A stretch of DNA of 64,000 nt from an uncultured Candidatus Sumerlaeota bacterium (GTDB lineage: Bacteria > Sumerlaeota > Sumerlaeia > MWCT01 > JAUWMI01): the NCBI GenBank assembly GCA_964454265.1, contig CAYVXD010000001.1, positions 13,136 through 77,135 on the forward strand, read 5' to 3'. The notes under the pieces were generated by a model. That model worked only from the letters and a program-made list of their open reading frames with translations, ran no database searches and was not told the origin of the DNA. Shown in pieces: positions 7,290 to 51,881 of this stretch. The position numbers and the translations under genes were made by a program. Numbering within the stretch: the stretch's first letter is position 1; every line of letters starts with the position of its first letter.

Positions 7290-7354
7290 AGCTCACAGGG
7301 GTCGTATAGAAAGCAGCAAACAATCGGGAGAGCCAGCGTATGGCGGAGCTTCGG

Positions 7355-26091: not shown

Positions 26092-26336
26092 TATCCGATA
26101 CCCGTTCTGTGTACTGATTAGATGTGGATTAACACAGGCAGAGTAGTGGGAAATCACAGACTGGGTTATAACGGGCAGGCGTTCAGCAATACGCGAACTT
26201 GCGCTGCAGAGCCATCTTTGGCACTGCCCGTCCTTAGGAGCCGCAAAATTTGCCTTGCAAAAATCAACCGGAATTGTGATAGATAAATATGGAGTCGGTT
26301 GAGTATTATTAAATTTGTGCGCACGGGCTCGGCCTG

Positions 26337-27635
26337 ATGAACATTACGCTTCAATGCATTGATTGTGGAAAGCAGTACGATCCGCTGGAGCTTCGCTACA
26401 CGTGCGATTGCGGCGGCCTGCTCGACGCGATTCATGATCTCGACCGCCTGAAATCCTTGCCTCTTAAACAGCTCTTCGACGAGCGCTGGAACTCGCGCTC
26501 GTTTCCCTACAACTCCGGGGTCTGGCGCTATAGGGAACTCATTATTCCTGTTGATGATCAGTTCATAGTATCTAAACCGGAAGGGAACACCAATCTGTAT
26601 CCCGCCGGAAAGGCGGGTGAGTATGCTGGCCTGCGCCGCATGTTTCTCAAACATGAAGGTGAGAATCCCACCAGTTCATTTAAAGATCGTGGGATGACCT
26701 GCGGTATCACTATGGCACGGCTACTGCACGCCGACACTGTCGCCTGTGCCTCCACTGGCAACACCTCTGCCTCTATGACCGCCTACGCGGCCCTCGCTGG
26801 CATGCGGGCCATCATCTTCATCCCCGAAGGCAAGATCAGCTACGGCAAGCTAACCCAGGCCCTGGCGTACGGCGGGAAAACGTTCCAGATTCAGGGCAAT
26901 TTTGACGACGCCATGGCCCTCGTGGTGGAGGTCTGTAAGGAACTTAATATCTACCTTCTTAACTCCATCAACCCGTTCCGCATTGAAGGCCAGAAAGCAA
27001 TTGGCTTTGAGGTGCTTCAGCAGCTCAACTGGCAGATGCCAGACTGGTTCGTGCTGCCAGGGGGAAACCTGGGCAACAACAGTGCGCTGTCTAAAGGGCT
27101 GAAGGAGCTTTTCGACATTGGCCTTATTACTAAGATTCCGCGCATTGCTGTAATTCAGGCCGAAGGCGCCAACCCTCTTTACAAAATGTGGAAAGAGAAA
27201 ACTGCTTTCAAACCGGTCAGGCAACCCGAGACCATTGCAACCGCCATCAAAATCGGGAATCCCATCTCGTGGAAAAAGGCCATGCGAGGCATTGAGTGGA
27301 GCAACGGCGTTGTTGAGCAGGTCTCGGAGCAGGAAATCATGGATGCCAAAGCGTGGGTGGATGCCGTGGGAATTGGTGCTGAGCCTGCTTCTTGCTGCTC
27401 CATTGCTGGCGCTAAAAAGCTAGTTGAAAAGGGCGTGATCCATCCTGATGAACTGGTCATTGGTATTCTAACCGGTCATCTGCTCAAGGATCCTGAAGCC
27501 GTAATTCGCTACCACACGGGTGACCTCAAGTCGCTAGGGATTGAGTCGAGGTATGCGAATGCGCCGATTCGGATTGAACCTACACTTGATGCGGTGAGGG
27601 AGGCGCTCTATGAAGTACGTCGTGTTTCTCGCTGA
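26337..27635 (+). CDS. thrC: Threonine synthase
   Basis: N-terminal Cys4 zinc ribbon (CIDCGK...CDCGG), the PLP lysine motif SFKDRGM and the SINPFRIEGQK motif. Confidence 0.85.
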   Translation: MNITLQCIDCGKQYDPLELRYTCDCGGLLDAIHDLDRLKSLPLKQLFDERWNSRSFPYNSGVWRYRELIIPVDDQFIVSKPEGNTNLYPAGKAGEYAGLRRMFLKHEGENPTSSFKDRGMTCGITMARLLHADTVACASTGNTSASMTAYAALAGMRAIIFIPEGKISYGKLTQALAYGGKTFQIQGNFDDAMALVVEVCKELNIYLLNSINPFRIEGQKAIGFEVLQQLNWQMPDWFVLPGGNLGNNSALSKGLKELFDIGLITKIPRIAVIQAEGANPLYKMWKEKTAFKPVRQPETIATAIKIGNPISWKKAMRGIEWSNGVVEQVSEQEIMDAKAWVDAVGIGAEPASCCSIAGAKKLVEKGVIHPDELVIGILTGHLLKDPEAVIRYHTGDLKSLGIESRYANAPIRIEPTLDAVREALYEVRRVSR

Positions 27636-28815
27636 CGGAATGGCTGACGAGCCACTCCCGGAGCTCTCAAACAAAACACCACTTATGGTCGCTCGTACGC
27701 CTCACCTTGATCGCCTGGCGCGTAACGGCCGATGCGGAACACTCCTCACCTTGCCCGAAGGCTTTCCCACCAGCTCAGACGTTGCGAACCTCTCAGTGCT
27801 CGGCTACGACCTTGCATCCTGCTATACGGGTCGCGGCCCTCTTGAAGCAATCAGCCAGGGCATTAAACTCGGCCCTCATGATGTCGCATTCCGCTGTAAC
27901 CTGATCACTGCGAAGGACGGCGTCCTTGACGAATACTCGGGCGGGCACATCAGTAGCGAGGAAGCGTGCGAACTCATACATGCCCTGGACGAAAAATTTG
28001 GCACTCCCAAAATCCGCTTCCATCCGGGCGTTAGTTATCGGAACATTCTGATTCTTTCTGGCGAGGAGTTTTCTGACCAACTTGAATACCACAAGCCCGA
28101 TAGCTCCCACGGTATGGCGATTCGCTCGATCTTGCTTGCGCCGAAGGAGCCAGATGCGAAAGCGACCGCAGAGCTCCTCAATCAGATGACTCTCGATTCG
28201 GAAGATTTGCTCAGCAGCCATCCAGTTAACAAGAAACGCGTTTCCGAGGGAAAGAAACCTGCTAATATGATCTGGCTATGGAGCCCGGGTAAAAAGCCTG
28301 AGCTCGAAGCCTTTCACCGCAAGTACGGCCGCCACGGTGCCATTATCTCGGCCGTTGACGTCATCTTTGGCATTGGTATTGCTGCTGGCATGAAGATCAT
28401 CAAAGTGCCAGGCGCAACCGGCTATATTGATACGAATTACGAAGGGAAAGCTGATGCTGCGCTTAAGGCACTCCAACGCGTGGACTTTGTGTATGTGCAC
28501 GTTGAAGCGATTGACGAAGTCAGCCACCTTGGTAAGCTTGACCTTAAGCTGCAGGCGATCAAAGACTTCGACCGCCGAGTGTTAGGCCATTTCCTCGAAC
28601 GCTGCCCACCCGGTGTGACTGTTGCTGTTCTGCCCGACCATCCTGTGCCCCTCAAACTCCGCAAGCACACCCGCACACCCGTGCCATTTGCCATCTACAA
28701 ACCCGGAACAACGCCTGACATGGTTGCTGAGTTTAATGAGTATTCCTGCCACGAAGGGAGTCTCGGCGAGCTCAAAGGCGATGGCTTTATGAAAGCTCTC
28801 TTCCGTACCGCATGA
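27610..28815 (+). CDS. Cofactor-independent phosphoglycerate mutase-like (ApgM/alkaline-phosphatase superfamily) protein; proposed non-orthologous homoserine kinase
   Basis: MKYVVFLADGMADEPLPEL..KTPL is the ApgM-family N-terminus. The start overlaps the thrC end by 26 nt. This family is known to cluster with thrA/thrC in Bacteroides-type thr operons. Confidence 0.6.
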   Translation: MKYVVFLADGMADEPLPELSNKTPLMVARTPHLDRLARNGRCGTLLTLPEGFPTSSDVANLSVLGYDLASCYTGRGPLEAISQGIKLGPHDVAFRCNLITAKDGVLDEYSGGHISSEEACELIHALDEKFGTPKIRFHPGVSYRNILILSGEEFSDQLEYHKPDSSHGMAIRSILLAPKEPDAKATAELLNQMTLDSEDLLSSHPVNKKRVSEGKKPANMIWLWSPGKKPELEAFHRKYGRHGAIISAVDVIFGIGIAAGMKIIKVPGATGYIDTNYEGKADAALKALQRVDFVYVHVEAIDEVSHLGKLDLKLQAIKDFDRRVLGHFLERCPPGVTVAVLPDHPVPLKLRKHTRTPVPFAIYKPGTTPDMVAEFNEYSCHEGSLGELKGDGFMKALFRTA

Positions 28816-29122
28816 TGTTGACACCCGCCTTGTAAACCCTAGCGAACTCTGAAAATGACCTGATCTGAATCCTGCTGGCACGAAATAGAATTTATGGCGT
28901 AGCCACTGCTGGAACGACGAAATATTTTCTCCGAGCATCAGCTATCGTATCATAAAACTTCTATCAAGCGGACAGCAACCACAGCGAATTTTTCCAAGGA
29001 GCCCTTTATTCAAATTCCTGCCAGGTCTATAACCCTTTCCGGCCTTGCACCATGCCTGAACAAGGCAACTGTGCGGCAGTGTTTGGTCACCCCTCAAGCC
29101 GTCTGAGTGTAATGAAAAAGCA

Positions 29123-29151
29123 TTGACTTTTCATGGGGTTTCTCCTATCAA
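29123..29151 (+). promoter_or_regulatory. Sigma70-like promoter (TTGACT-N17-TATCAA) upstream of hisH
   Basis: TTGACT at 29123-29128, a 17-nt spacer, then TATCAA at 29146-29151. It is about 50 nt upstream of the hisH ATG. Confidence 0.35.
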
Positions 29152-29199
29152 GAGACTTCTTAAATTTCAGAGTTGATTTTTTTACCTTATGGCACTGAA

Positions 29200-29814
29200 A
29201 TGAGCATCGTTATTATAGATTATGGGATGGGGAATCTGCGCAGTGTGGAGAAGGCGTTTGTGCGCCTGGGGTTTACGGTGGAGATTACGTCTGACCCGGA
29301 CGCTATCAATCGCGCAGAAAAGATTGTAGTACCCGGTGTTGGCGCTTTTGGCGACGCCATGCGCGAGTTGCGCGAGCGCGGTCTAATCGAGCCTCTTCTG
29401 TGCGCAATCACTGATCAGCGTCCCTTTCTTGGCATCTGCCTTGGCTTGCAGGTGCTCTTTGAAGGAAGCGAAGAAGCCCCAAATGTCCCAGGACTTGGCG
29501 TGATCCCAGGTCTCGTGAAGCGCCTTCAGACCGACCTTAAGGTGCCCCATATGGGCTGGAATACGCTTCATGTTATTCGCCGTCCCCCGATCCTTGACGG
29601 CATTTCCGACAGCGCCTACGTCTATTTTGTCCATTCCTACTACGTTGAGCCGATGGATGGCTCCGTCACTGCAACCACAACAGACTATGGCATTTCGTTC
29701 ACCTCGATGATCTGGAGGGGCAACCTTTTTGCCACTCAGTTCCACCCCGAGAAGAGCCAGGCAGTGGGGTTAGAGATTCTAAAAAAGTTCGGAGAATATC
29801 GTGGCGAAACCTGA
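29200..29814 (+). CDS. hisH: Imidazole glycerol phosphate synthase glutamine amidotransferase subunit
   Basis: IVIIDYGMGNLRSV, the catalytic Cys region GICLGLQ and PHMGWN are HisH signatures (class I GATase). No hisF lies next to it. Confidence 0.75.
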   Translation: MSIVIIDYGMGNLRSVEKAFVRLGFTVEITSDPDAINRAEKIVVPGVGAFGDAMRELRERGLIEPLLCAITDQRPFLGICLGLQVLFEGSEEAPNVPGLGVIPGLVKRLQTDLKVPHMGWNTLHVIRRPPILDGISDSAYVYFVHSYYVEPMDGSVTATTTDYGISFTSMIWRGNLFATQFHPEKSQAVGLEILKKFGEYRGET

Positions 29815-30736
29815 TCAAACGGGCATCAGAATCAAAGTACCCGCATCTACCACAAATCTTGGGCCAGGCTATGATTGCCTAGGCCTTGCTCTGAAACTTT
29901 ACAATTATATTGAATTCGAGCGGCTGCCGCGCGGAAAAACGCAGCTCATCTGGCAAGGCGAACAAAATGACGCCATGCGTCCGCATGTTGAGAAGCTCGT
30001 ACTGCGAGCAGCAAGAGAGATATTTGATTTGTGCGGAGTTAGTGCTCCAGGCTTGAGAATTACCTTGAAGCTCAATATCCCCATTGCACGAGGGCTTGGC
30101 AGTAGTGCAACCGCCATTATCGCCGGCATGGTCGCAGCGAATGAATTATGTGGCAGTCGGATTTCCCGAGAAAAGCTTCTGGTACAGAGCGCAAAGTTTG
30201 AAGGGCATCCTGACAACGTCACGGCTTGCTTTCTGGGTGGTTTAACTGCTTCAACGTTTAGTGGAGATGGTCTTGCGATCAGGAAGTATCGACTCAGAAG
30301 TGCGCTCAAAGTGGTTGTTGTTGTCCCCTCCTATGGTCTGGAAACCAGAAAGGCGCGCGCGGTGATTCCGAAGCACGTGAAGCACCGTGACGCAGTGTTT
30401 AACCTCAGCCGCGTTCCTCTGGTGATTGATCGCCTGGTTACGGGCGAATTATCTGACCTTCAGCGCTTGATGCAGGATCGCCTCCACCAGCCTTATCGTA
30501 AACCGTTGATTAAAGGTTATGACCAGATTGTCAGAGCCGGCCTGAATGCAGGTGCGGGTGCAGTAGTACTCAGCGGCGCAGGCCCTTCCATGGTCGCTTT
30601 TTGCACCTCCAATGTTGAACAGGTTGCCACGTCCATGGGGGAGATTCTGAGCACCCTTAACATATCAAACTACGTCTTGATTCTCTCGCCGGATAATCGC
30701 GGAACCGTTGTCGAACACTTTGACCGTATCTCATAG
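29801..30736 (+). CDS. thrB: Homoserine kinase (GHMP kinase)
   Basis: KVPASTTNLGPGYDCLGLAL, the GHMP motif PIARGLGSSAT and the expected length of about 310 aa. Confidence 0.85.
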   Translation: MAKPDQTGIRIKVPASTTNLGPGYDCLGLALKLYNYIEFERLPRGKTQLIWQGEQNDAMRPHVEKLVLRAAREIFDLCGVSAPGLRITLKLNIPIARGLGSSATAIIAGMVAANELCGSRISREKLLVQSAKFEGHPDNVTACFLGGLTASTFSGDGLAIRKYRLRSALKVVVVVPSYGLETRKARAVIPKHVKHRDAVFNLSRVPLVIDRLVTGELSDLQRLMQDRLHQPYRKPLIKGYDQIVRAGLNAGAGAVVLSGAGPSMVAFCTSNVEQVATSMGEILSTLNISNYVLILSPDNRGTVVEHFDRIS

Positions 30737-30796
30737 ACTTTTTACATTATCAACTCCCTTCGAAACGTCAGTGGGGCAGGGCCTGGAGCATGTGTA

Positions 30797-32002
30797 ATGC
30801 CTGATCTGAAGGTAACATTTTGTGGCGTTCCTTTTGAGAATCCCTTTCTGCTTGCCGCAGCACCATCAACAGATGAGCTCGACATGGTGCGACGCGCTTA
30901 CGAGTCCGGATGGGCAGGCGCAGTATTAAAAACAACATCTGTGGTCGGTACGCGTGTACCCCTCAGGTACCCGCTCCTGGCTGCATCGGCCGACCCGAAT
31001 CGCAAGCTCTATGCCTTGGGCAACATTGATCTGATCTCGAAGTATCACGTTGACGTTGTGGCGGAGCGCATACAGACACTTGCTCGCGAATTCCCGGAGA
31101 AGGTCACAGTTCCCAGCATCATGGGCGCTACGCTGGAACAGTGGAAGACCCTGGTTCATATATGCGAGCAGGCAGGGGCCAGAGTCATTGAGTGCAGCGT
31201 CAGCTGTCCACAAGGCACGCTTGGATCAAAGCCCGGCTTGATGTTGGGCCAGGATGTTGGGTTGGTTGAGGAGATCACGCGCTTGCTCGTCAGCGCCGCC
31301 ACGGTCTCCCGTATTGTGGTGAAACTTACTCCACTCGTAGCTGATATTGTTGAAACTGCCCGTGCTGTGAAACGAGCAGGGGCACATGCGGTCTCCGCAA
31401 TCAACACCATACCATCTCTCATGGGTGTTGATCTCGAAACTCTGGTTCCTCAGCCTGATGTTGGCGGCAAATCTACTTACAGCGGGCTCTCGGGTCCGGC
31501 GATAAAACCCGTGATGCTTCGGGCTGTTGCAGAAATTGTGCGCCATACCGGCCTGGAGGTGACGGCTACCGGCGGGATTATGAGCTGGCGCGATAGCGTG
31601 GAATCATTGCTGGTTGGAGCTCGTACGGTGCAGCTCTGCACGGCAGTGATGCTGAATGGCTTCGGTGTTATCAATGAGTTGCGCGATGGCCTGCAGCGCT
31701 TTATGGAGGGCAAGGGATTCGAGCACGTAGAAGATGTCATTGGCCGGTCCCTCCCGCACATTGTCACCTTCGACGAGCTACCCGAGCAGTTTCACGTGCG
31801 AGCGCGGATTGATCTGACAAAATGTACCCGATGTGGCCGATGCTTTATTGCTTGTCGCGATGGCGGTCACGTGGCTGTTCGCATGGAAGCAGATAAACAA
31901 CCAAGCATTGACGACACACGATGCGTGGGGTGCGGCTTGTGCCAAATTGTCTGTCCGGTTGAGCGCTGTATCAGTATGGCTGCAATAGCGAAGTCCCCTT
32001 GA
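30797..32002 (+). CDS. Dihydroorotate/dihydropyrimidine dehydrogenase-family flavoprotein with two C-terminal 4Fe-4S ferredoxin motifs (PreA-like)
   Basis: DHOD-like TIM barrel (VPFENPFLLAAAP, KLTPL, TATGGI) plus CTRCGRCFIAC and CVGCGLCQIVCP cluster motifs. Length 401 aa, like E. coli PreA. Confidence 0.65.
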   Translation: MPDLKVTFCGVPFENPFLLAAAPSTDELDMVRRAYESGWAGAVLKTTSVVGTRVPLRYPLLAASADPNRKLYALGNIDLISKYHVDVVAERIQTLAREFPEKVTVPSIMGATLEQWKTLVHICEQAGARVIECSVSCPQGTLGSKPGLMLGQDVGLVEEITRLLVSAATVSRIVVKLTPLVADIVETARAVKRAGAHAVSAINTIPSLMGVDLETLVPQPDVGGKSTYSGLSGPAIKPVMLRAVAEIVRHTGLEVTATGGIMSWRDSVESLLVGARTVQLCTAVMLNGFGVINELRDGLQRFMEGKGFEHVEDVIGRSLPHIVTFDELPEQFHVRARIDLTKCTRCGRCFIACRDGGHVAVRMEADKQPSIDDTRCVGCGLCQIVCPVERCISMAAIAKSP

Positions 32003-32008
32003 GGAGGG

Positions 32009-33346
32009 TTGTGTGTGATTATTTACAATGCAACGGTCATCTCAGTCGGTGCAAAGCCACTGCTTATTCCGAATGGGGCTGTGTATGTTCGCGATGATCG
32101 GATTGTAGACGTAGGGAAGAGCTCTCGCATCATGAAGGCCTACAGGTCGGCGGGCTCTATTAATGCTAATGGTAAAGTGTTGATGCCAGGGTTGATTAAC
32201 AGCCATACGCATCTGTACAGCACATTTGCGCTGGGCATGCCATCAATTGGACAGCAACCTCGCAATTTCATGCAGACGCTGAGAAGAGTCTGGTGGCGTC
32301 TGGACAGGGCACTCTCTGAGGAAGCGATTCGGCTCAGCGCACTGCTTTCGCTGGCTCAGGCAATTCGTGCCGGCACCACTACGTTGATTGACCATCATTC
32401 GAGCCCCAACGCGATCCGCGGAAGCCTCGATTGCCTTAGCAACATTGTTGAACGTGTAGGCATTCGCGCATGTATGAGTTACGAGGTTTCGGATCGCGAC
32501 GGGAAACGCTGCACTCGCGAAGGAATTGAAGAAAACGTACGCTTCCTCCAGGCAATAAATCGTCGCTCATCTCTGGTGCGCGGCATGTTTGGTCTACATT
32601 CCTCGTTTACCCTGTCTGATGAGACGCTGCGCCGGTGTGTCACTGCAGCCCGAGCCGTTAATGCGGGATTTCATCTCCATTGTGCGGAATCTTTGACTGA
32701 CAATGAAGACAGCATGAAGAAATACGGAAAAGGTGTGGTAGAGCGACTGGCCAAAGTCAGCGTTCTGGGGCCTCAGACCATTCTGGCGCACTGCGTTCAT
32801 ATTTCTGATGCGCAAATCAGCCTCTTGGCCAAAACCCGCACAATGGTCGCTCACAACCCACGATCAAATATGAACAACGCGGTGGGCTGTGCTCCACTCA
32901 CGCACATGCTCAAGCGTGGCGTAACCGTGGGATTAGGAACCGACGGCATGTCGGAATCGATGTGGGACGAGCTGAAGACAGGCGTCTTGCTCCATAAACA
33001 CGTTGGCCGAGACGTGCGCGCAGGCACCAGTGGGATGATCACTGCACTGTTTCAAAACAATGCGCGCATAGCCAGCCAGATTTTTAACACAAAGATCGGC
33101 GTAATTGAAAAACGTGCAAAGGCCGATCTGATTCTGGTTGACTACTACATGCCAACGCCGCTAACCAAGGAAAACCTTGCGGCACACGTTCTCTTTGGCA
33201 TTGCAAATGCACCGGTTGATACCACAATTGTAAATGGTAAAATTCTCATGCGGAACAGGAAATTGCGCGGAATTGATGAGAGCAGGATTGCAACGCGCGG
33301 CCGAAAAATTGCCAGGCTGCTCTGGCGTCGCATGGTCTCTTCGTAG
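32009..33346 (+). CDS. SsnA-like amidohydrolase (chlorohydrolase/aminohydrolase family)
   Basis: VLMPGLINSHTHLYST is the metal-binding HxH motif, with later HLHCAES and GLGTDG motifs. Length 445 aa, like SsnA. Its stop codon is embedded in the palindrome at 33343-33370. Confidence 0.65.
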   Translation: MCVIIYNATVISVGAKPLLIPNGAVYVRDDRIVDVGKSSRIMKAYRSAGSINANGKVLMPGLINSHTHLYSTFALGMPSIGQQPRNFMQTLRRVWWRLDRALSEEAIRLSALLSLAQAIRAGTTTLIDHHSSPNAIRGSLDCLSNIVERVGIRACMSYEVSDRDGKRCTREGIEENVRFLQAINRRSSLVRGMFGLHSSFTLSDETLRRCVTAARAVNAGFHLHCAESLTDNEDSMKKYGKGVVERLAKVSVLGPQTILAHCVHISDAQISLLAKTRTMVAHNPRSNMNNAVGCAPLTHMLKRGVTVGLGTDGMSESMWDELKTGVLLHKHVGRDVRAGTSGMITALFQNNARIASQIFNTKIGVIEKRAKADLILVDYYMPTPLTKENLAAHVLFGIANAPVDTTIVNGKILMRNRKLRGIDESRIATRGRKIARLLWRRMVSS

Positions 33347-33370
33347 GGGCAATTCATGAATTGTCCCTAC
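33343..33370. repeat. REP-like 28-bp near-perfect palindrome, copy 1 (GTAGGGGCAATTCATGAATTGTCCCTAC)
   Basis: The two arms are reverse complements except for one position per arm. The sequence overlaps the TAG stop of the upstream gene. Confidence 0.8.
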
Positions 33371-33460
33371 ATTATTTATTGTATGCAAGAAAGGGAGAAG
33401 AGGCATCGGCATAAGGTTCTTGTATGTTACAAGGTTTTGCGATTTAATAATGTAATTTTT

Positions 33461-33489
33461 GTAGGGGCAGGTTTAAAACCTGCGCCTAC
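33461..33489. repeat. REP-like palindrome, copy 2 (GTAGGGGCAGGTTTAAAACCTGCGCCTAC)
   Basis: Same GTAGGGGC...GCCCCTAC-type arms with a different palindromic core. It has the same left flank, TTTTTGTAGGGG. Confidence 0.75.
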
Positions 33490-33534
33490 CGTGACAAAGA
33501 AGAGCAGAGTATTTCCCGGTAAGGAGTATTCCCC

Positions 33535-34557
33535 ATGGACATTGCCAATACAATTCTCGATACGACTGCCAATACCCCACTGGTACGGCTCAATCGCGTT
33601 AACGCAAACGTCGGGACAGAGATACTGGCTAAGATTGAATACTTCAGTCCAAGTGGAAGTGTTAAGGATCGCATCCTGCGGCACATCGTGGACGAAGCAG
33701 AAGGCACTGGGCAGCTGAAACCGGGGATGATTTTGATCGAAGCCACCACAGGTAACGCAGGGATTTCTACCGCCATGATCGCTGCAGTTAAAGGATATCA
33801 GGCAGTCATCTGTATGCCCGGCGGCATGAGTGAAGAGCGCAAGAAGATCATTCGCGCTTATGGTGCTACGATTGTTGAGACACCCGGAGGGGAGAGCGAC
33901 GTTGATCTCGTGATGAAGAAAGTCCGTGAAATTATGGCTGAAGCGCCAGGCCGCTACTGGGAAGTCGGCCAATTCACCAATCCGAATAACTGGCAGGCAC
34001 ATTATCACACCACAGGGCCGGAAATCTGGCGCCAGACCGGTGGACAGATTGATGCCTTCATAGCCGCCCAGGGAACCGGTGGTACGATAACCGGCGTAGC
34101 AAAGTATTTTCGCGAACAGAAGGCGCAGACGAAGTTCTATGCGATTGAGCCAGCCGAATGTCCTCTCCTGACTAAAAGCCAATGGGGATCGCATAAGATC
34201 GAGGGGATCGGCGATGGATTCATCCCTGAAACGCTCGATGTCAGCCTGCTGGATGGTGTGGTCACGACCACGAGCGAGGAAGCGATTAACATGGCCCGGC
34301 GGCTGGCGCGCGAAGAGGGGATTTTCTGTGGTATCTCGTCCGGGTGCAGCGTGGTTGGCGCGCTCAAGCTCGCCAGGCTTCATCCAGAGTACCGCCGTAT
34401 TGTTACGATGATCTGGGATAATGGGTTGCGCTATTTTTCAACGGAATTATGCGGTGAGCAGAAACAGCTCGATTCTCCAGAGCGGGAACACCCCATGGAC
34501 GCGCGTACGCAAGCATTGCTGAAAAAGTACCGGAGCCACTGGGAGGTGATCGAGTAG
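33535..34557 (+). CDS. Cysteine synthase-family (CysK/CysM-like) PLP-dependent enzyme
   Basis: PLVRLNRV...SGSVKDR (PLP lysine), TTGNAGIS, and a Gly-rich loop GTGGTITG. Confidence 0.75.
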   Translation: MDIANTILDTTANTPLVRLNRVNANVGTEILAKIEYFSPSGSVKDRILRHIVDEAEGTGQLKPGMILIEATTGNAGISTAMIAAVKGYQAVICMPGGMSEERKKIIRAYGATIVETPGGESDVDLVMKKVREIMAEAPGRYWEVGQFTNPNNWQAHYHTTGPEIWRQTGGQIDAFIAAQGTGGTITGVAKYFREQKAQTKFYAIEPAECPLLTKSQWGSHKIEGIGDGFIPETLDVSLLDGVVTTTSEEAINMARRLAREEGIFCGISSGCSVVGALKLARLHPEYRRIVTMIWDNGLRYFSTELCGEQKQLDSPEREHPMDARTQALLKKYRSHWEVIE

Positions 34558-35790
34558 GTGGAGACAGGTGGAATAAACCCAGCGATGATCCGCGAAAAGG
34601 CCGAGGCGTACCGCGAGGCGATGACCGGCTTTCTGCGCGAGCTCATTGCGATCCCCTCGCCAAGCGGCCAGGAAAAGCGAGTCATAGAGCGCGTGCGGCA
34701 GGAAATGCAACAGGCCGGCTTTGATGAAATTCTCATTGACGATTTCGGTACTATTGCCGGCCGCCTGGGGTCGCGTGGCCCCCACATCGTATTTGATAGC
34801 CACCTCGACACTGTCGGTGTCTCAGACCCCACCGCATGGGATTTCGATCCGTATAAGGGTAAGATCGAGCGCGATGCCGTGTGGGGAAGAGGCGCTGCTG
34901 ACAACAAAGCCGCTGCCGCAGCGCATCTTTACGCCGCCAAGATAATCAAGGAAATAGCCCGGACCCAGGAGCTGCCCTTCACACTGTTCGTCGTCGGCTC
35001 GGTGCAGGAAGAGGATTGCGATGGGCTTGCTCTGGGCCACCTGATCACTCAGACACTGAAGCGGGTGGATTGTGTGGTGCTGGGTGAATGCACTAACTGT
35101 CAGATTTATCGTGGACATCGTGGCCGTGCAGAACTACTGATCCAGACACGAGGTGTTGCATGTCATGCCAGCAATCCCGACCGTGGTGAAAACGCCATTT
35201 ACAAAATGGCTCCGCTGATTCGTGAACTAGAGCAATTGAATGCGGAACTTGGTACCGATCCCTTTCTAGGCAAAGGCAGCATTGCGGTAACCAAGATTGA
35301 GTGCGACACGGATTCTCTGAACTGTGTTCCTTCGGCTTGCCGTATCTTTGCAGATCGTCGCCTCACGCGCGACGACAGTAGGGGAGAGGTGATTGGACAA
35401 CTCAGGCGGCTACCTTCGGCTTCACAAGCGCACATTAGCATTCTGCGGCGTGCAATGACATCCTGGACCGGTAAGAATCTCGAGAAGGATCAGTACTTTC
35501 CGGCATGGGCGCTTGAGGAATCTCATGAGCTTGTTCAACAAGCTCGCAAGTCCTACGAAGGGCTTTTTGGCGAAGCTCCCCGCATTGGGAAATGGACGTT
35601 CAGTACGAATGGGGTGGCCACGATGGGCGAACTCGGCATCCCAACGATAGGATTTGGGCCCGGAGAAGAGCAGTTCAGTCACAGTACTCAGGATCATGTC
35701 CCAATTGATCATCTGACCCGAGCCGCAGCCTTTTACGCGGCATTTCCGTTCGTTTACTCGGGTGCCATTACTTACGGGTCAGAGAAATAA
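34558..35790 (+). CDS. M20-family metallohydrolase (YgeY / ArgE / DapE-like)
   Basis: M20 metal-binding motifs (HLDTV, GAADNK, EEDCDG) and a length of about 410 aa. Confidence 0.65.
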   Translation: METGGINPAMIREKAEAYREAMTGFLRELIAIPSPSGQEKRVIERVRQEMQQAGFDEILIDDFGTIAGRLGSRGPHIVFDSHLDTVGVSDPTAWDFDPYKGKIERDAVWGRGAADNKAAAAAHLYAAKIIKEIARTQELPFTLFVVGSVQEEDCDGLALGHLITQTLKRVDCVVLGECTNCQIYRGHRGRAELLIQTRGVACHASNPDRGENAIYKMAPLIRELEQLNAELGTDPFLGKGSIAVTKIECDTDSLNCVPSACRIFADRRLTRDDSRGEVIGQLRRLPSASQAHISILRRAMTSWTGKNLEKDQYFPAWALEESHELVQQARKSYEGLFGEAPRIGKWTFSTNGVATMGELGIPTIGFGPGEEQFSHSTQDHVPIDHLTRAAAFYAAFPFVYSGAITYGSEK

Positions 35791-35831
35791 AGATAATCAG
35801 GCCACAGCAAATTGTGAGATAGGGATTATAT

Positions 35832-36836
35832 ATGAACCAGGGATTAAAAGGTCGTGACTATATTACTACGCAGGAATGGACGCTCCAGGAGATGGAAGTT
35901 GCTTTAAGCCTGGCTACAGAGCTCAAGCAGATGAAGCGCCGAGGCATACCGCATCGTTATCTTGAGGGCAAGACGCTTTTCATGTTTTTTTTCGACAAGT
36001 CCACGCGAACGCGCAACTCATTCGAAGCGGGCATGACGCAACTCGGCGGCCACGCTCACTATATTGACGCAGAAACTTCCCAGATCGCGCATGGGGAGAG
36101 TCCAAAAGACACCGGCATCATTATGTCGCGTTACGGCCACGGTATTGCCATCCGTCATGATTTAGTCCCCGGTGAGGGGAATGCGTATATCCGCGAAGTC
36201 GCACGATGGGCCGACGTTCCGGTCTTGAACATGCAGTGTGATGTGGATCATCCCTGCCAGACTCTTGCTGATCTAATGACCCTACGCGAACAGCTCGGGC
36301 ACGATCTGCGTGACGTAAAAATTGCAGTTTCTTGGGCTTACGCGCCAAGCTACGCCAAGCCTCTCTCCGTGCCTCAGGGCCTAATCTTGCTACTGACTCG
36401 CTATGGCATGCATGTCACCCTGGCACATCCGCCTGAGTACAGTCTCATGCCTGAGATTGTCGAGCAGGCACGGCAGAATGCGCAGGCGAGTGGTGCGAAA
36501 TTCGAGATTGTTGACTCCATGGACGAGGCGTTTCGCAATGCAGCAGTGGTTTACCCCAAATCTTGGGGTGTGCTGGAGCTTTTCGGCCAGCCTGAGGAAT
36601 CGCTCAAATTGGCCCGGCAATATCAACACTGGATTTGTGACGAGCGGCGAATGGGTTTGACTGCTTCTATTAAGCATGCGTCAACAACTAGGTCATCGCT
36701 TTATATGCATTGTTTGCCCGCAGATCGTGGCCATGAAGTAACCGATTCAGTAATTGATGGCCCACACTCTGTGGTCTATGATCAGGCAGAAAACCGGCTC
36801 CATACGTGCAAGGCCTTAATGGCTCTGACAATGTGA
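35832..36836 (+). CDS. Aspartate/ornithine carbamoyltransferase-family protein, YgeW-like (substrate unknown)
   Basis: STRTR carbamoyl-phosphate motif, HPCQ and HCLP. The ornithine-binding DxxSMG region of true OTCs is absent. Confidence 0.55.
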   Translation: MNQGLKGRDYITTQEWTLQEMEVALSLATELKQMKRRGIPHRYLEGKTLFMFFFDKSTRTRNSFEAGMTQLGGHAHYIDAETSQIAHGESPKDTGIIMSRYGHGIAIRHDLVPGEGNAYIREVARWADVPVLNMQCDVDHPCQTLADLMTLREQLGHDLRDVKIAVSWAYAPSYAKPLSVPQGLILLLTRYGMHVTLAHPPEYSLMPEIVEQARQNAQASGAKFEIVDSMDEAFRNAAVVYPKSWGVLELFGQPEESLKLARQYQHWICDERRMGLTASIKHASTTRSSLYMHCLPADRGHEVTDSVIDGPHSVVYDQAENRLHTCKALMALTM

Positions 36837-36871
36837 ACGCCGGATAGTTCAAGGCGCGCTGGTGTTCTATA

Positions 36872-37675
36872 ATGCAGCAAGCAAAATTCTTCGAGAAGGT
36901 ACTTGATCTAATCCGGGCTGGCAAGCGTGGCGCTGTTGTAACAATTATCTCAACTGAAGGTTCAACGCCGCGCAAAGGGGGGGCCAAGATGCTTGTAAGC
37001 GAGGATCTCGAGCTGGTAGGAACCGTAGGTGGTGGGTGCGTCGAAGCAGAAATCATCGCCGCGGCCCGTACGTGTATGAGAAGCCAAAAGCTCGTGGTCA
37101 AGGAGTTCGATCTGACCCGGATTAACCGGGACGAAAATGATATGCTCTGTGGAGGGAGGCTGCGCGTGATGATTGAACCAATAACCCTCGACGATCAGCT
37201 CTTGATCTTTGGAGGCGGCCACGTGGCACTCGCTCTGTATCAGATTTGCCGGCTGCTCGATTTTCGCGTAACAGTCACGGATGACCGGCCGCAATTTGCA
37301 AATAAGAAGCGCTTTCCTGAAGCTGATCAGGTGTTCGCTGCACCCTACGACCAACAGTTTCAGTCGCTCTCCATCACGCCGAATACTTTCATCGTCATTG
37401 TCACCCGAGCCCACGCAGGCGATGAGATTTGTCTCAGACATGCGCTGAAATCACCTGCCTCGTATATTGGCCTCTTGGGAAGCCGCACCAAGTTTGCCCA
37501 GCTGAAAAAACGGCTGATAGATGCAGGTGTCCCACGTGCGCAGCTTAAGCGGATTCATTGCCCGATCGGGCTCGATATTGGAGCCGTTACGCCGGAAGAA
37601 ATTGCAGTAAGCATTGCCGCTGAGATTGTTCAGCATGGGGGGGCAATTCGTGCATCACGCGATAAAAAGAAATAG
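36872..37675 (+). CDS. XdhC/CoxI-family molybdenum-hydroxylase maturation protein
   Basis: Two-domain XdhC architecture (TIISTEGSTPRKGGAKM; LLIFGGGHVALAL Rossmann-like) and a length of about 265 aa. Confidence 0.6.
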   Translation: MQQAKFFEKVLDLIRAGKRGAVVTIISTEGSTPRKGGAKMLVSEDLELVGTVGGGCVEAEIIAAARTCMRSQKLVVKEFDLTRINRDENDMLCGGRLRVMIEPITLDDQLLIFGGGHVALALYQICRLLDFRVTVTDDRPQFANKKRFPEADQVFAAPYDQQFQSLSITPNTFIVIVTRAHAGDEICLRHALKSPASYIGLLGSRTKFAQLKKRLIDAGVPRAQLKRIHCPIGLDIGAVTPEEIAVSIAAEIVQHGGAIRASRDKKK

Positions 37676-37890
37676 GCATTGACTCTGCCAGAAAACTGCG
37701 GTAAAAAGTCTGATTGTATTGCTCTTCCGTAAGGGATTCGTAATGCCGAAAAGGCGTAATTCTCTGCATTTGAAATTGACTGCTTAGCAGCCAGGTGAAA
37801 GAGCAGTTTGCTCGGTTTGCTGCACTGAGCGCATGTGGGAATAATTCTGTTAAACGCACGTTGTTCTTATCCAGCAAAGGGGATGTTTCT

Positions 37891-38604
37891 GTGAAACTGC
37901 ACATTCATAATGTGATAGTAATCTGCGGTCTGCTGTGCGCCCTGAGCATTCCGGTTTGGGCTACTGATTCAGCAACAACCGCAACGTTGGAAAACGACCC
38001 GGAAGCTGTTGTCCTGTTGAAAAAACTGGAAGAGAAAAATGCGGATGTTGACACGATTATTGGACAATTCGACCAGGTAAAGCAATCCACCTTATTTCTC
38101 GAAGAGATTCAGTCACAGGGGAAATTTTATTTTCAGAAACCGGACAAGTTCCGTTGTGATTATTTGCCACCGAATGAGAGTGAGAACTTGATCGTAGGGA
38201 ATACGGCATGGCTCTACGTGCCGGAAATTAAGCAGGTGGAAAAGTACCAATTTTCTTCAGACGTAAATTCCGTGGAGCGATTAAACCGCATGCTGCTTGG
38301 CTTTGGGGTCTCCACGGCTGATGTGCTGGATGTATATCATGTGACTGTTCTCAAGGACGAGAGCTCGAAGGGCGTGACCGCACTCCGATTTACGCCTCTG
38401 AGGAAAGAACCTACTGTTGGATTCAACAAGGTCGTTATCTGGATTAATGAGAGGCATTTGTTGCCGGAAAAAATTGTTATTGATGAAGAGAGTGGTGACC
38501 AGACGATTATAACCATGACACAGATTCGTCTGAATAGAAAAATATCGGATAAGATCTTTCAGCCGGTCTTTCCTCCCGACGTCGAGATCGTCGAAATCTA
38601 TTAG
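37891..38604 (+). CDS. LolA-like outer-membrane lipoprotein carrier-family protein (GTG start)
   Basis: Signal peptide (ICGLLCALSIPVWA), then FxQ...GxFxFxKPxKFRxDY typical of the LolA/LolB fold. Confidence 0.5.
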   Translation: MKLHIHNVIVICGLLCALSIPVWATDSATTATLENDPEAVVLLKKLEEKNADVDTIIGQFDQVKQSTLFLEEIQSQGKFYFQKPDKFRCDYLPPNESENLIVGNTAWLYVPEIKQVEKYQFSSDVNSVERLNRMLLGFGVSTADVLDVYHVTVLKDESSKGVTALRFTPLRKEPTVGFNKVVIWINERHLLPEKIVIDEESGDQTIITMTQIRLNRKISDKIFQPVFPPDVEIVEIY

Positions 38605-38621
38605 GAGCGGATACTGCATTT

Positions 38622-39161
38622 ATGAAATCCTGGCTCTACTGCCTAAGGTGTGTTCTGGCGCTCTCGCTGGTACTGCTCGTCGCATGTACATCGGTTCCCC
38701 TGGAGAGAACGCTTCCTGAGGCCATAACGGCCATTGACGTGCCCATGTTTAAGAACTTAACCTACGAGCCAGGGATTGAGGAACTCATAACCAACTACAC
38801 GATAGAAAGTTTCCTGGCCGATGGTAGGCTGACCGTGGTTCAGAAAGGTGTGGCTGATGCGCGTGTGGAAGGAGCCGTCACCGCGTACACCGTGAGTGTT
38901 TCAAGCTTTGCTAGCGATGACTTTCCCATGATCAGCACTGCCGAGGCAACGGCAAAGGTGACAGTCTGGCAGCCTCAAAAGCCCGAGGCTCCCATCGCGG
39001 AATTCTCTGATATTCACGCATCTATTCCCTATGTTGCCGATCCTCGTTCCACCGTCTACGAGAATGTTGTCGAAGTGAAAAAACGCCTCTTCAGAACCCT
39101 GGCCTCTAATATCGTCACGATGGTGATGACAGGTCCGTATCCGTCTGAGGCGGAAAAGTGA
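38622..39161 (+). CDS. Small lipoprotein, possibly LptE-like
   Basis: Lipobox LLVAC and a size of about 180 aa. It sits adjacent to the LolA-like gene. The LptE assignment is tentative. Confidence 0.3.
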   Translation: MKSWLYCLRCVLALSLVLLVACTSVPLERTLPEAITAIDVPMFKNLTYEPGIEELITNYTIESFLADGRLTVVQKGVADARVEGAVTAYTVSVSSFASDDFPMISTAEATAKVTVWQPQKPEAPIAEFSDIHASIPYVADPRSTVYENVVEVKKRLFRTLASNIVTMVMTGPYPSEAEK

Positions 39162-39235
39162 TATAATCACCCCGGCTTGCAGGTTTGCTGCAAAGGCCAT
39201 TACGCCACAGAATTGCGCGGCACGGTAGATATCCC

Positions 39236-41245
39236 ATGCTTTTCGAACGGATTAAAAGCAACCGGCTTATCATCCTCTCGGTCGTTGTCTTCATTGTGAC
39301 CGGTGTGCTGATCTTGCTTCAGCTTGATCGGCAGTACTACCAGGTCAAGAAAAAACAAATTATTGTGGATAATTGGGAAAAATTCTTCCCCGTAGATCGC
39401 GAGGATCTGACCAGGGAATCCCGAGCAGTGATCTTGGCGACCGACCCGCGGTCTCAGGATCTGGCACGGCGGCCTCTCCGCCAGACATTCGAGGATATTG
39501 CTCATGGGCCGACCAGCGCCTACCGGATGGCCTTGCTCGACAAGAACAGTGAAGTTTTGCTAGAAGTAAAACAGGATAAGATTCGGCGCTATAATAACGC
39601 CAGAAATTCCCTGTTCCTGCGAGAGTTCTCAGGCGAAACCAGCCTTTTGATCTCCGATATTACCAGACACGTTATCGGCAAAGTCGTTGTGTCTTATACC
39701 ACACCGCTTGACAATCAGGAAATTATTGATCTCACCGCACGGTATAAATTCTATGCTCTCCTGATCATGGTGGGACTCATTATCATCTACGCCGCACTTC
39801 TAAAATTTTTGCTACTGCCAGTCAAACGGGTTATGGGACGCCTGGATTACGCCCTCAAGGCCTCGCCAGAAATTATTAAGCGCCCACGCTCGCGGCTCGA
39901 ACGCGTGTATAACAACCTGGCTCGAGATGCCCTGCTCACCGCTGCCAATCAACATATCAAGGGTTTCATTTCAACCAGCGCCACGCTGGATACCGCTGTC
40001 ATCCTGGCTCAGCTCCCAGCATTCATTCTCCGCCTATTCCGCTACGCAGGCATCTGGGTGTTTGAATTCAAGCGAGATCCCGAGAATCGCTATATCTTGG
40101 TCCATTCGTTTTCGGAAGGCGGGAAGGTTGCCCATAGTCTCACCCCGCGCGTGAAGGAAATTCTTGAGGAAACGCTCCGCACTACTTCCTCGGTTATGCT
40201 TGCGAGCAAGCTTGAGAAGGTAGTCATTCAGTGCCAGGATGGCGGCAAGCCATATTGCCTTTTTATTGATCTGATCAATGAGCGTGAGGAGTACGCTCTT
40301 GTGGACATCATAGCCATTCTGGCTGACGGTGTACCCGGTCGCGTGCCGGATAAGTGGCGGCTGGAGACGTTGGGCTTGCTTTGCGAGCAGGTCAAAACCG
40401 GCATCAAGACAATCGAGATGCAGCGCCAGATGATATTTCGCGAAAAGAGCGAGGCTAATATCAATCTGTCCCGTAATCTGGGCCACGATCTGACGAACAT
40501 TATTGCCACGAGCAAACTGGATTTGTTAACCGTGCGGGACTTTCTATCGCAGTCAGACCTCCCACCAGCGACTCAGGCCCAGGGCGTTCGGATCTTTCAG
40601 GAAGCACTACAGGACCTGCTCAATAATACTAAATTTCTTCAGGAACTTGTTGACATCTACCGCTCATTCAGTTTTATCAAGCGTCCTCGCTTTGAAGAGG
40701 TTAACCTGCACGATTTGCTTGACGACATCATTCGCGTGTTTCAACTCTCGATCTCGAGAAACATCACAGTTGAAATACGACCCCATCCCCAGCTGCCCCA
40801 CTGCCGCATCGAGCAACGTCTTGTGAAGCTCGCCATTTTCAACCTCCTGAGCAATGCCGTGGATGCAATAAAGCGGAAAGTTTCGACAGAGAGCCTGAGC
40901 GGCAACATTGTGATAACGACGAACTATCTTGAGGAATCTGATGAGCTTTCTATTTCCATCAGAGATACTGGAGATGGTATCCGCGACGACAAGGGCGAGC
41001 TCGCCTCACCCATCGAAATTGACAAAATTTTCTACATGGGCTATTCGACCAAGCGGAATGAAGAAGGAGAGGGCCTTGGGCTGAATTGGGTCTGGACGAT
41101 TATCAGCGAATTCCACAAAGGTCGCGTTATTGCGCGGAATTGCCCCGACGGAGGTGCGGAATTCACTATCTACCTTCGGCGCCAGATAGATCTGCAAGAA
41201 GAGCAAAAGCCAACCCAGGACGTATCAGGAAAGTCTAAGAAATAG
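39236..41245 (+). CDS. Sensor histidine kinase (two TM segments, HisKA-HATPase core)
   Basis: H-box LGHDLTNII, an N-box region and the G1/G2 motifs (DTGDGI..., GEGLGLNW). Confidence 0.8.
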   Translation: MLFERIKSNRLIILSVVVFIVTGVLILLQLDRQYYQVKKKQIIVDNWEKFFPVDREDLTRESRAVILATDPRSQDLARRPLRQTFEDIAHGPTSAYRMALLDKNSEVLLEVKQDKIRRYNNARNSLFLREFSGETSLLISDITRHVIGKVVVSYTTPLDNQEIIDLTARYKFYALLIMVGLIIIYAALLKFLLLPVKRVMGRLDYALKASPEIIKRPRSRLERVYNNLARDALLTAANQHIKGFISTSATLDTAVILAQLPAFILRLFRYAGIWVFEFKRDPENRYILVHSFSEGGKVAHSLTPRVKEILEETLRTTSSVMLASKLEKVVIQCQDGGKPYCLFIDLINEREEYALVDIIAILADGVPGRVPDKWRLETLGLLCEQVKTGIKTIEMQRQMIFREKSEANINLSRNLGHDLTNIIATSKLDLLTVRDFLSQSDLPPATQAQGVRIFQEALQDLLNNTKFLQELVDIYRSFSFIKRPRFEEVNLHDLLDDIIRVFQLSISRNITVEIRPHPQLPHCRIEQRLVKLAIFNLLSNAVDAIKRKVSTESLSGNIVITTNYLEESDELSISIRDTGDGIRDDKGELASPIEIDKIFYMGYSTKRNEEGEGLGLNWVWTIISEFHKGRVIARNCPDGGAEFTIYLRRQIDLQEEQKPTQDVSGKSKK

Positions 41246-41396
41246 GAGAGTCTTCGGGAGAGACAAATGGGGCGTTACGAAGTAGGGCTGATTGAAAAGC
41301 GTACAATGGCAGCGAGCGAAGCGGCCACCCGTAGCATGGAGAGTAACATGCCTTGCGCAGCATGGAATTGTTTAAAAGAAATGGAGAGGTATTTGC

Positions 41397-51853: not shown

Positions 51854-51881
51854 GTAGGGGCAATTCATGAATTGCCCCTAC
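51854..51881. repeat. REP-like palindrome, copy 3 (GTAGGGGCAATTCATGAATTGCCCCTAC, perfect)
   Basis: Perfect 28-bp palindrome. The core is identical to copy 1 and it has the same TTTTGTAGGGG left flank and CTACAT right flank. Confidence 0.85.

Follow-up and report, generated by a model that had tools for sequence, protein, structure and literature searches.

What does a compact run of six genes do when three of its products belong to, or resemble, proteins of the Escherichia coli ygeW-ssnA locus and several of that locus' other enzymes are nowhere near? The run lies in a 64-kb stretch of contig CAYVXD010000001.1, from an uncultured Candidatus Sumerlaeota bacterium; this whole stretch is called the window throughout. 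In order, the genes encode a PreA-like reductase, the amidohydrolase SsnA, a CysK-like pyridoxal phosphate (PLP) enzyme, the M20 hydrolase YgeY, a short YgeW-like carbamoyltransferase (CT) and an XdhC-type chaperone. In our view it is likely that the genes from ssnA to xdhC, probably together with the preA-like gene, make up a pared-down environmental version of the anaerobic pathway that degrades urate reductively through 2,8-dioxopurine. A first-pass annotation, made from the sequence alone, had offered an SsnA/YgeW/YgeY-type neighbourhood or a reductive heterocycle catabolic pathway; both descriptions hold, as one system rather than as alternatives.

The substrates of SsnA, YgeW and YgeY, which that annotation still held to be unknown, were identified in two studies of 2025. 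Assayed step by step, the ygeW-ssnA gene products of E. coli and Clostridium break urate down by a reductive route through 2,8-dioxopurine, ureidomethylhydantoin, 2,3-diureidopropionate and 2,3-diaminopropionate to pyruvate (PMC12507026; bioRxiv 10.1101/2025.04.24.650524). XdhD converts urate to 2,8-dioxopurine, HyuA opens the hydantoin to 2,3-diureidopropionate, YgeW releases one ureido group as carbamoyl phosphate by phosphorolysis (from which YqeA then makes ATP), YgeY hydrolyses the other ureido group, and YgeX turns 2,3-diaminopropionate into pyruvate (PMC12507026; bioRxiv 10.1101/2025.04.24.650524). The ring is reduced by YgfK or, in C. difficile, by UacX, a stand-alone PydA-type PF01180 protein encoded beside SsnA, and E. 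coli SsnA turns dihydro-2,8-dioxopurine into ureidomethylhydantoin (PMC12507026). The two groups differ only on which ureido group YgeW takes. The four-step logic first suggested for the window, namely a dihydroorotate dehydrogenase (DHOD)-like reductase, a ring-opening amidohydrolase, a transcarbamylase and an M20 hydrolase, matches this biochemistry.

A conserved six-gene block

The window was scanned with NCBIfam and Pfam profiles and compared by BLAST with the proteins of the E. coli cluster. Six co-oriented open reading frames (ORFs) were found exactly where the first-pass annotation had placed them (Table 1), inside an uninterrupted run of forward-strand genes at 23918-42683. The gaps between them are, in order, 6, 188, 0, 41 and 35 bp; the description of the block as tightly spaced therefore applies to all but the 188-bp gap after ssnA, which holds two palindromes. 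Four of the six proteins pass the cut-off of a curated NCBIfam family, and SsnA and YgeY pass equivalog cut-offs. The identical six-gene order is present on the contigs of relatives (loci L001-L004 and L007; proteins 74-97% identical), and in L003 it is kept despite a different upstream gene (PdxJ). Since the order survives a change of upstream gene, the arrangement is not a matter of chance.

Table 1. Coordinates of the six-gene block, its palindromes and one distant gene in the window, with profile scores (family cut-offs in brackets)
Feature	Position	Strand	Evidence
PreA-like reductase, flavin mononucleotide (FMN) type	30797-32002	+	NF006183, 434 bits (335)
SsnA amidohydrolase	32009-33346	+	NF005540, 547 bits (444); TIGR03314, 536 bits (455.5)
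REP-like palindromes	33343-33370 and 33461-33489		terminator-like scan; GTAGGGGCA...CCCTAC
CysK-like PLP enzyme	33535-34557	+	TIGR01139, 357.1 bits (350.95)
YgeY-family M20 hydrolase	34558-35790	+	NF009555, 478 bits (321); TIGR03526, 466 bits (321.5)
Short YgeW-like carbamoyltransferase (CT), 334 aa	35832-36836	+	best match YgeW NF005538, 257 bits (453)
XdhC/CoxI-type chaperone, 267 aa	36872-37675	+	Pfam XdhC_CoxI + XdhC_C
8-oxoguanine deaminase, 5' end cut by window edge	2-1333	+	NF006055, 593 bits (532)

The remaining genes of the 64 kb are housekeeping genes by Pfam and NCBIfam. BLAST with the E. coli proteins found no molybdenum (Mo)-hydroxylase subunit, HyuA, carbamate kinase, YgfK, PreT, YgfT or YqeC in the window; no purine transporter, YqeB or YgeX is encoded there, and the profile scans show no SelD and no cysE among its genes. 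Pfam, NCBIfam and BLAST thus agree with the earlier statement that a Mo-hydroxylase subunit, selD and carbamate kinase are absent. An Rfam scan of 28.5-39.5 kb returned no riboswitch and no leader. A sigma-54 promoter pattern gave 48 matches against 40 expected, none of them in the relevant intergenic regions, and scans for sigma-70 promoters and terminators were at background level, the hairpin at 33343 excepted.

SsnA and YgeY belong to the assayed families

SsnA passes both of its NCBIfam models and carries the metal-binding HxH motif of amidohydrolases as HTH at residues 66-68. It is 35% identical to E. coli SsnA and 44-48% identical to the SsnA proteins of environmental clusters with CysK-like or ThrC-like enzymes. 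The protein encoded at 32009 is hence not the generic deaminase that the first-pass annotation had allowed for. By orthology, SsnA would open the reduced pyrimidine ring, converting dihydro-2,8-dioxopurine to ureidomethylhydantoin. YgeY, 45% identical to its E. coli namesake, also passes both of its models; on the ArgE model the same protein scores 120 bits, and both ArgE and DapE are far below their cut-offs. By the same kind of argument, it is predicted to hydrolyse the remaining ureido group to give 2,3-diaminopropionate.

These two assignments bear directly on the reductive catabolism of uracil or thymine, in which PreA would be the dihydropyrimidine dehydrogenase, SsnA the dihydropyrimidinase and the M20 protein the beta-ureidopropionase. 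M20 beta-alanine synthases do exist, the PreA-like protein passes the NCBIfam PreA model, and its closest homologues lie outside purine clusters. Nevertheless, SsnA and YgeY pass their own equivalog models and not those of dihydropyrimidinase or beta-ureidopropionase, no PreT is present in the window, and the homologous clusters carry xanthine dehydrogenase (XDH), purine deaminases and YgfK. Pyrimidine catabolism also leaves the carbamoyltransferase and the PLP enzyme with no role, and we regard it as quite improbable. A biosynthetic scheme, in which CT, the amidohydrolase and the DHOD-like protein would run in the reverse, pyrimidine-like direction, was considered and set aside, as related clusters carry carbamate kinase, XDH and purine deaminases.

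The 188-bp gap downstream of ssnA deserves a separate description. Its first palindrome has a 12-bp stem and overlaps the ssnA stop codon. Both palindromes belong to an intergenic family resembling repetitive extragenic palindromes (REP), of the form GTAGGGGCA-(loop)-TGCCCCTAC, a third copy of which lies at 51854-51881; no Rfam match was obtained for them. In the relatives L001, L002 and L007 a single palindrome, lacking a T-tract, is kept at the ssnA stop, and the extra copy of the window rides on an insertion of about 110 bp. These elements may act as a partial terminator, a read-through attenuator or an RNA-stability element.

A short sister family of YgeW

The CT passes no NCBIfam model. 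Besides its best match to the YgeW model (Table 1), it scores 237 bits on TIGR03316 (cut-off 500), 248.5 on the ornithine carbamoyltransferase (OTC) model TIGR00658 (280.85) and 243 on the N-acetylornithine carbamoyltransferase (AOTC) model (288). Its best match among solved structures is YgeW itself (3Q98, 227 bits), and it is 40% identical to E. coli YgeW as against 30% to E. coli ArgI. CT and YgeW share, at equivalent positions, STRTR, HPxQ, SQIAHGE, the proline-rich segment SY.KPLSVPQG, YPKSW and HCLP. Where P. furiosus OTC has YTDVWASMG, which contains the ornithine-binding loop (DxWxSMG/DxxxSMG), CT has YPKSWGVLE. It is 62 residues shorter than YgeW (396 aa), and three YgeW insertions are missing from it in the alignment with 3Q98. 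In a rough neighbour-joining tree, built without bootstrap and including no AOTC or N-succinylornithine carbamoyltransferase (SOTC), the CT family is sister to YgeW and apart from the OTCs. An AlphaFold2 (AF2) model, made for the trefoil knot from a shallow alignment, has a mean predicted local distance difference test (pLDDT) score of 68.7, with residues 44-113 below 50.

The label "YgeW-like" is therefore apt as far as best match, motifs and tree are concerned, but by the hidden Markov model (HMM) cut-off the protein is not YgeW; it belongs to a shorter sister family instead. Nor is it a true ArgF, the other identity that had been allowed for, as it is without the ornithine DxxxSMG motif and does not pass the ArgF model. 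An exact-sequence look-up of the window CT gave no match. Members of its family are 65-75% identical across Eisenbacteria, Zixibacteria, Calditrichota, KSB1, Sumerlaeota, Ignavibacteria, Acidobacteriota and Proteobacteria.

To place the family in context, 80 genome loci encoding a CT were surveyed, one per species, with flanks of up to 10 kb. YgeY is the most frequent partner (43 loci), usually just upstream of CT, followed by XDH subunits (about 24), HyuA (21), a ThrC-like PLP enzyme (about 21), SsnA (18), a PreA-like protein (11), the CysK-like enzyme (10), YgfK (9), the carbamate kinase YqeA (9) and 8-oxoguanine deaminase (7); a xanthine/uracil permease is also found among the neighbours. 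On one Zixibacteria contig (L021 and L093) the order is CT, mocA, two XDH sets, permease, PreT, PreA, adenine deaminase, SsnA, ThrC-like, CysK-like, YgeY and XdhC. On the strength of the motifs, the tree and these purine-gene partners in the 80 loci, we take CT to fill the place of YgeW in an environmental form of the purine route and not to be an enzyme of arginine biosynthesis. As such, it would phosphorolyse one ureido group of 2,3-diureidopropionate to yield carbamoyl phosphate.

The same survey argues against ordinary amino-acid biosynthesis, with ArgF, ArgE and CysK continuing the threonine/histidine gene run upstream. Aspartate kinase, thrC, thrB and hisH do precede the block, source annotations name the homologues "ornithine carbamoyltransferase" and "cysteine synthase A", and the CysK-like protein just passes the CysK model. 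On the other side, CT reaches neither the OTC nor the AOTC cut-off and has KSWGVLE in place of the DxWxSMG of OTCs, the M20 protein matches YgeY far better than ArgE, and CT homologues sit in clusters with XDH, HyuA, SsnA and YqeA in many phyla. Biosynthesis is, in our judgement, very improbable.

A CysK-like enzyme as a proposed stand-in for YgeX

The sole PLP enzyme of the block is closer to cysteine synthase than to YgeX. Its identity is 46% to E. coli CysK and only 27% to YgeX over 163 residues, and the YgeX model NF006058 is not among the best 25 of its 35 NCBIfam matches. Its pass on TIGR01139 is marginal; the orthologue in L087 fails this model at 318 bits, and on the SbnA model the window protein scores 209 bits, below the cut-off of 350. 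The PLP lysine lies in SVKDR (residues 42-46), and the phosphate loop GTGGT and the Ser of ISSG are present. The Asn loop reads TTGNAG, or (S/T)TGN(A/T)G across the subfamily, versus TSGNTG in CysK. The subfamily further has an invariant Asp in EGIGDGF (GIGAGF in CysK), an invariant Cys in EPAECP, a 6-residue deletion and a conserved C-terminal tail of 35 residues (306-340; ...PER(E/D)HP.D..T...L.KYQ..WE(V/I)I(E/D)). An AF2 model of the protein (pLDDT 90) renders the tail as a confident helix and terminal strand (pLDDT 85-94). Foldseek assigns this model to the CysK fold, with a template modelling (TM) score of 0.86 to M. tuberculosis CysK1, and matches the tail to no solved CysK.

At least 10 species encode orthologues, 57-65% identical, between SsnA, YgeY and CT or alongside them. 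In a metagenome survey centred on the CysK-like enzyme, 21 of the 36 loci of at least 8 kb contained purine-cluster genes, with the recurrent order XdhD(/YgfM), reductase, CysK-like, ThrC-like, SsnA, (YgfK), YgeY, YqeA, CT. YgeX, in turn, is the best match of no protein in any of the 161 related loci. The substitution, which had been called unusual, is so by comparison with E. coli but recurs in many environmental lineages, often with the ThrC-like enzyme. No link between ssnA and cysteine synthase was found in the searchable literature. A published neighbourhood analysis counted "YgeX" simply as Pfam PF00291, a scoring by which the YgeX, CysK-like and ThrC-like types would be lumped together. 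We infer that the CysK-like enzyme acts at the diaminopropionate or ureido-alanine stage instead of YgeX.

Two observations concern the wider distribution of these PLP enzymes. At L090 (9001-11630), a CysK-like member that is 65% identical stands directly upstream of a gamma-glutamyltranspeptidase gene, far from purine genes and with a urease operon 6 kb off; the subfamily is thus not exclusive to purine clusters. The ThrC-like enzyme is regularly encoded near SsnA: among SsnA loci of at least 8 kb, 28 of 37 have it (NF006050, 250-303 bits; for instance L005 10992-12230, L087 6463-7728, L091 10149-11387 and L093 7737-8984). It has so far gone undescribed as a component of the urate pathway. 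The window's own thrC (26337-27635) was considered as its counterpart and rejected: it is only 30-33% identical to two ThrC-like copies, which are 44% identical to each other (one pair compared), matches the canonical thrC model better, and has aspartate kinase and thrB as neighbours.

XdhC points to a molybdenum enzyme elsewhere

The chaperone carries both Pfam domains of its family, PF02625 (XdhC_CoxI, 82 bits) and the Rossmann domain PF13478 (XdhC_C, 162 bits). It narrowly misses two NCBIfam models (TIGR02964, 150.7 against 161.6 bits; NF045664, 296.9 against 350). A local match, 34% identical, to part of YqeB (541 aa) is the only YqeB link in the window. XdhC-type genes flank YgeY or CT in L022, L037, L045, L049, L058 and L093. 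The presence of XdhC implies that a Mo enzyme of the XDH family is encoded outside the window.

An XdhC-type chaperone would also suit an accessory or maturation set for a selenium-dependent Mo hydroxylase, with no catabolic role of its own; this is reportedly the older reading of Haft and Self. NCBIfam still labels SsnA and YgeY as "selenium metabolism" proteins. Against this, the E. coli homologues have had catalytic steps assigned to them by the 2025 biochemistry, the window has no YqeB, YqeC or SelD, and its XdhC matches generic XdhC models only. The selenium reading is largely refuted, and we give it hardly any credence.

The PreA-like reductase and the 5' boundary

The PreA-like protein combines an FMN-binding DHO_dh domain with two [4Fe-4S] motifs (CxxCxxCxxxC, residues 343-353 and 376-386) and has SCPQG at residues 136-140, in accordance with the SCPxG active-site motif. 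It is 36% identical to E. coli PreA and 49% identical to the PreA that is paired with PreT in the Zixibacteria purine supercluster. No homologue of PreT, YgfT or YgfK was found anywhere in the window, in the relatives L001-L004 or in L174-L176. As there is neither PreT nor an NAD(P)H module, electrons would come from a ferredoxin-type donor. By its architecture and its adjacency to ssnA, both of the UacX type, the protein is a candidate ring reductase for 2,8-dioxopurine. The gene ends 6 bp 5' of ssnA, and the pair is kept in L003, an 80-87% identical relative with another upstream gene.

Its history may nonetheless differ from that of its neighbours. In Sumerlaeota-type contigs, hisH and preA form pairs with overlapping stop and start codons (L174 8378-10203, L175 2619-4483, L176 8387-10206). 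The window HisH is an orthologue of the HisH in such pairs, and thrB sits between it and the PreA-like gene (29173-32002). The PreA-like gene may thus be an old resident beside which the ssnA-to-xdhC block sits, and its membership of the block is uncertain; we keep it in the pathway model with lower confidence.

Weighing the urate reading

Several observations count against a urate pathway in the window. Of the seven canonical enzymes, three have no gene in the 64 kb (the XdhD-type Mo enzyme, HyuA and YgeX), nor has carbamate kinase, and hence the pathway cannot run from the window's genes alone. Measured against the complete pathway, SsnA and YgeY are family members, the reductase and CT qualify by likeness only, and for the Mo enzyme, HyuA and YgeX there is nothing in the 64 kb. 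No curated model is passed by CT, and a strong hairpin parts ssnA from the cysK-like gene. The closest homologues of the PreA-like protein outside the genus (61-64% identical) are those of the HisH-PreA pairs, which have no SsnA cluster within 9 kb. By both HMM and fold, the CysK-like protein comes close to a canonical cysteine synthase, and 15 of the 36 loci centred on it lack purine genes; for these, no second shared context is clear beyond L090, the simple ORF caller being unreliable on such high-GC contigs. CysK enzymes, moreover, act on L-amino acids. The published intermediates are D-(R)-configured (bioRxiv 10.1101/2025.04.24.650524), at odds with this L-specificity. Finally, HyuA and SsnA hardly ever turn up in the same 10-kb neighbourhood: both occur in 1 locus, HyuA only in 17 and SsnA only in 36. 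A similar near-exclusion is seen for HyuA and the ThrC-like enzyme. The near-exclusion of HyuA and SsnA may be an artefact of sampling 10-kb flanks or may mark a HyuA-independent branch.

The last possibility leads to a rival in which SsnA, the CysK-like enzyme (joined in other lineages by the ThrC-like one), YgeY and CT form a branch of their own, acting on some other, related compound of the ureido or N-heterocyclic kind or carrying out an end-game without HyuA and YgeX; the C3 unit could then leave as cysteine or another beta-substituted alanine. This would agree with the rarity of HyuA next to either SsnA or the ThrC-like enzyme, with the lack of any YgeX best match in the related loci, with the invariant residues and tail peculiar to the CysK-like subfamily, and with L091 and L092, in which SsnA, ThrC-like and CysK-like stand together although neither CT nor YgeY lies within 9 kb. 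Yet the clusters very often carry XdhD/YgfM, YgfK, YqeA and deaminases for 8-oxoguanine and adenine, which points to purines and urate; the exclusion may stem from 10-kb flanks cut around superclusters, as L021 and L093 lie on one contig; and the CysK-like enzyme and HyuA do co-occur in L031, L064 and L066. We hold a separate branch to be unlikely, and retain the urate pathway as the reading of the block.

A bolder proposal about its last steps is offered tentatively, as we are more inclined to doubt it than to accept it. The SsnA-linked CysK-like enzyme, with its invariant Asp and docking tail and with a ThrC-like partner elsewhere, might complete anaerobic purine degradation in a way that has not been described and dispenses with both HyuA and YgeX. 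It would cleave or exchange the C-beta-N bond of diaminopropionate or ureido-alanine, and the C3 unit would leave as cysteine (with sulfide) or another beta-substituted alanine, not as pyruvate. Such a route could be the dominant form in free-living sediment and soil phyla, unseen by published surveys based on identity thresholds.

A proposed sequence of steps

On the urate reading, the pathway would run as follows. Urate, arising for example from 8-oxoguanine through the deaminase at the window's 5' edge, would be dehydroxylated to 2,8-dioxopurine by an XdhD-type Mo enzyme encoded outside the window, its cofactor inserted by the XdhC of the block. The PreA-like FMN/2x[4Fe-4S] protein may then reduce the C5=C6 bond, as its architecture and the UacX precedent suggest, after which SsnA, as the orthologue of an assayed enzyme, would hydrolyse the reduced pyrimidine ring to ureidomethylhydantoin. 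The hydantoin ring must next open to give 2,3-diureidopropionate, a step for which the window holds no HyuA. From its family likeness and conserved context, CT would phosphorolyse one ureido group to carbamoyl phosphate, which, with no carbamate kinase nearby, could yield ATP through a kinase encoded elsewhere or could enter arginine or pyrimidine synthesis. YgeY would hydrolyse the other ureido group to give 2,3-diaminopropionate, again by orthology. In the least certain step, the CysK-like enzyme might eliminate the beta-nitrogen substituent via aminoacrylate, to pyruvate and ammonia or, with sulfide, to cysteine.

Other genes in the window and in related loci

The 8-oxoguanine deaminase lies 29 kb from the block. 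Its frame is open to base 2 of the window, and profile positions 59-453 are matched. Members of this family adjoin SsnA in L005, L098, L099, L109 and L149. We treat the gene as context and as a possible feeder enzyme that would supply urate from 8-oxoguanine.

Two related loci, L146 (8841-9908) and L162 (1756-2835), have a gene of the FMN-dependent alpha-hydroxyacid dehydrogenase family (PF01070, 442 and 422 bits) between XdhD and the CysK-like gene. No YgfK, PreA or F420 reductase was found in these clusters, and the PF01070 protein is a candidate for a further type of 2,8-dioxopurine reductase. In L091, a 568-aa Amidohydro_3 protein (6966-8672, reverse strand), of the same Pfam family as UacY, is encoded beside the CysK-like, ThrC-like and SsnA genes, where CT and YgeY are both lacking; it may stand in for the carbamoyltransferase in the manner of UacY.

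The gene run upstream of the block has features of its own. A GSU2086-family protein with no Pfam domain (25138-26091, forward strand; NF052581, 402 bits) lies between aspartate kinase and thrC, and the start of its gene overlaps the aspartate kinase stop by 1 bp. Two types of homoserine kinase occur in the same run, an ApgM-type "proposed homoserine kinase" at 27610-28815 (TIGR02535, 500 bits) and a classical ThrB at 29801-30736 (TIGR00191, 253 bits). The ApgM-type family is usually invoked where genomes are without thrB.

Comparison with known systems

The block shares SsnA, YgeY, a YgeW-like CT and an XdhC-family chaperone with the E. coli ygeW-ssnA pathway, together with its logic: reduce, open the ring, remove two carbamoyl groups and finish with a PLP step. 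Unlike the E. coli system, the window is without XdhD/YgfM, YgfK, HyuA, YqeA, YgeX, YqeB/YqeC and purine transporters; its reductase is a stand-alone PreA-type protein, its CT is shorter, and its PLP enzyme has the CysK fold rather than being a diaminopropionate ammonia-lyase. The C. difficile UacX variant is alike in having, next to SsnA, a DHO_dh-type reductase with FMN and [4Fe-4S] centres and no FAD/NAD(P)H domain (PMC12507026), for which a ferredoxin-type donor is likewise presumed. That variant keeps XdhD, HyuA and YgeX, and in it the hydrolase UacY replaces the carbamoyltransferase and kinase, whereas the window keeps the carbamoyltransferase.

The nearest counterparts are the environmental clusters of Zixibacteria (L021 and L093), Terriglobia (L033 and L054, among others) and metagenomes (L115, L130, L146, L162), in which CT is 56-73%, the CysK-like enzyme 57-65% and SsnA 37-48% identical to the window proteins, and YgeY and XdhC are present. 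They usually add XdhD/YgfM or XdhABC; YgfK, PreT with PreA, or FMN_dh; carbamate kinase; the ThrC-like enzyme; and purine deaminases. Of the clusters seen, that of the window is the most reduced. As for individual enzymes, the CysK-like protein has the fold, PLP lysine, GTGGT, ISSG and Asn loop in common with CysK/CysM, SbnA, the O-ureidoserine synthase DcsD and beta-cyanoalanine synthase, and differs from them in TTGNAG, GIGDGF, EPAECP, the 6-residue deletion, the tail and its catabolic purine context. The Pyd pathway (PydA/PreAT, PydB, PydC) also proceeds by reductive dearomatisation, ring hydrolysis and ureido cleavage; the window differs from it in having no PreT, an SsnA that is not a dihydropyrimidinase, and an additional carbamoyltransferase and PLP enzyme.

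A published survey found the reductive urate pathway enriched in Bacillota and host-associated habitats, using identity thresholds of at least 63% for YgeW and at least 50% for YgeX (bioRxiv 10.1101/2025.04.24.650524). The window variant would not pass these thresholds. The divergent form, with a short YgeW-like CT, CysK-like and/or ThrC-like enzymes replacing YgeX and several alternative ring reductases, is found in Sumerlaeota, Zixibacteria, Calditrichota, KSB1, Ignavibacteria, Acidobacteriota and others, which suggests that sediments and soils commonly host anaerobic purine mineralisation by this route. Thousands of proteins named "ornithine carbamoyltransferase" and "cysteine synthase A" are probably purine-catabolic enzymes. 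The CysK-like subfamily is the main enzyme target for learning how the last steps work without HyuA and YgeX. The system is known in kind; what is new is a reduced variant of it, with a short YgeW-like family and an SsnA-linked CysK-like subfamily, and with no HyuA or YgeX in the window.

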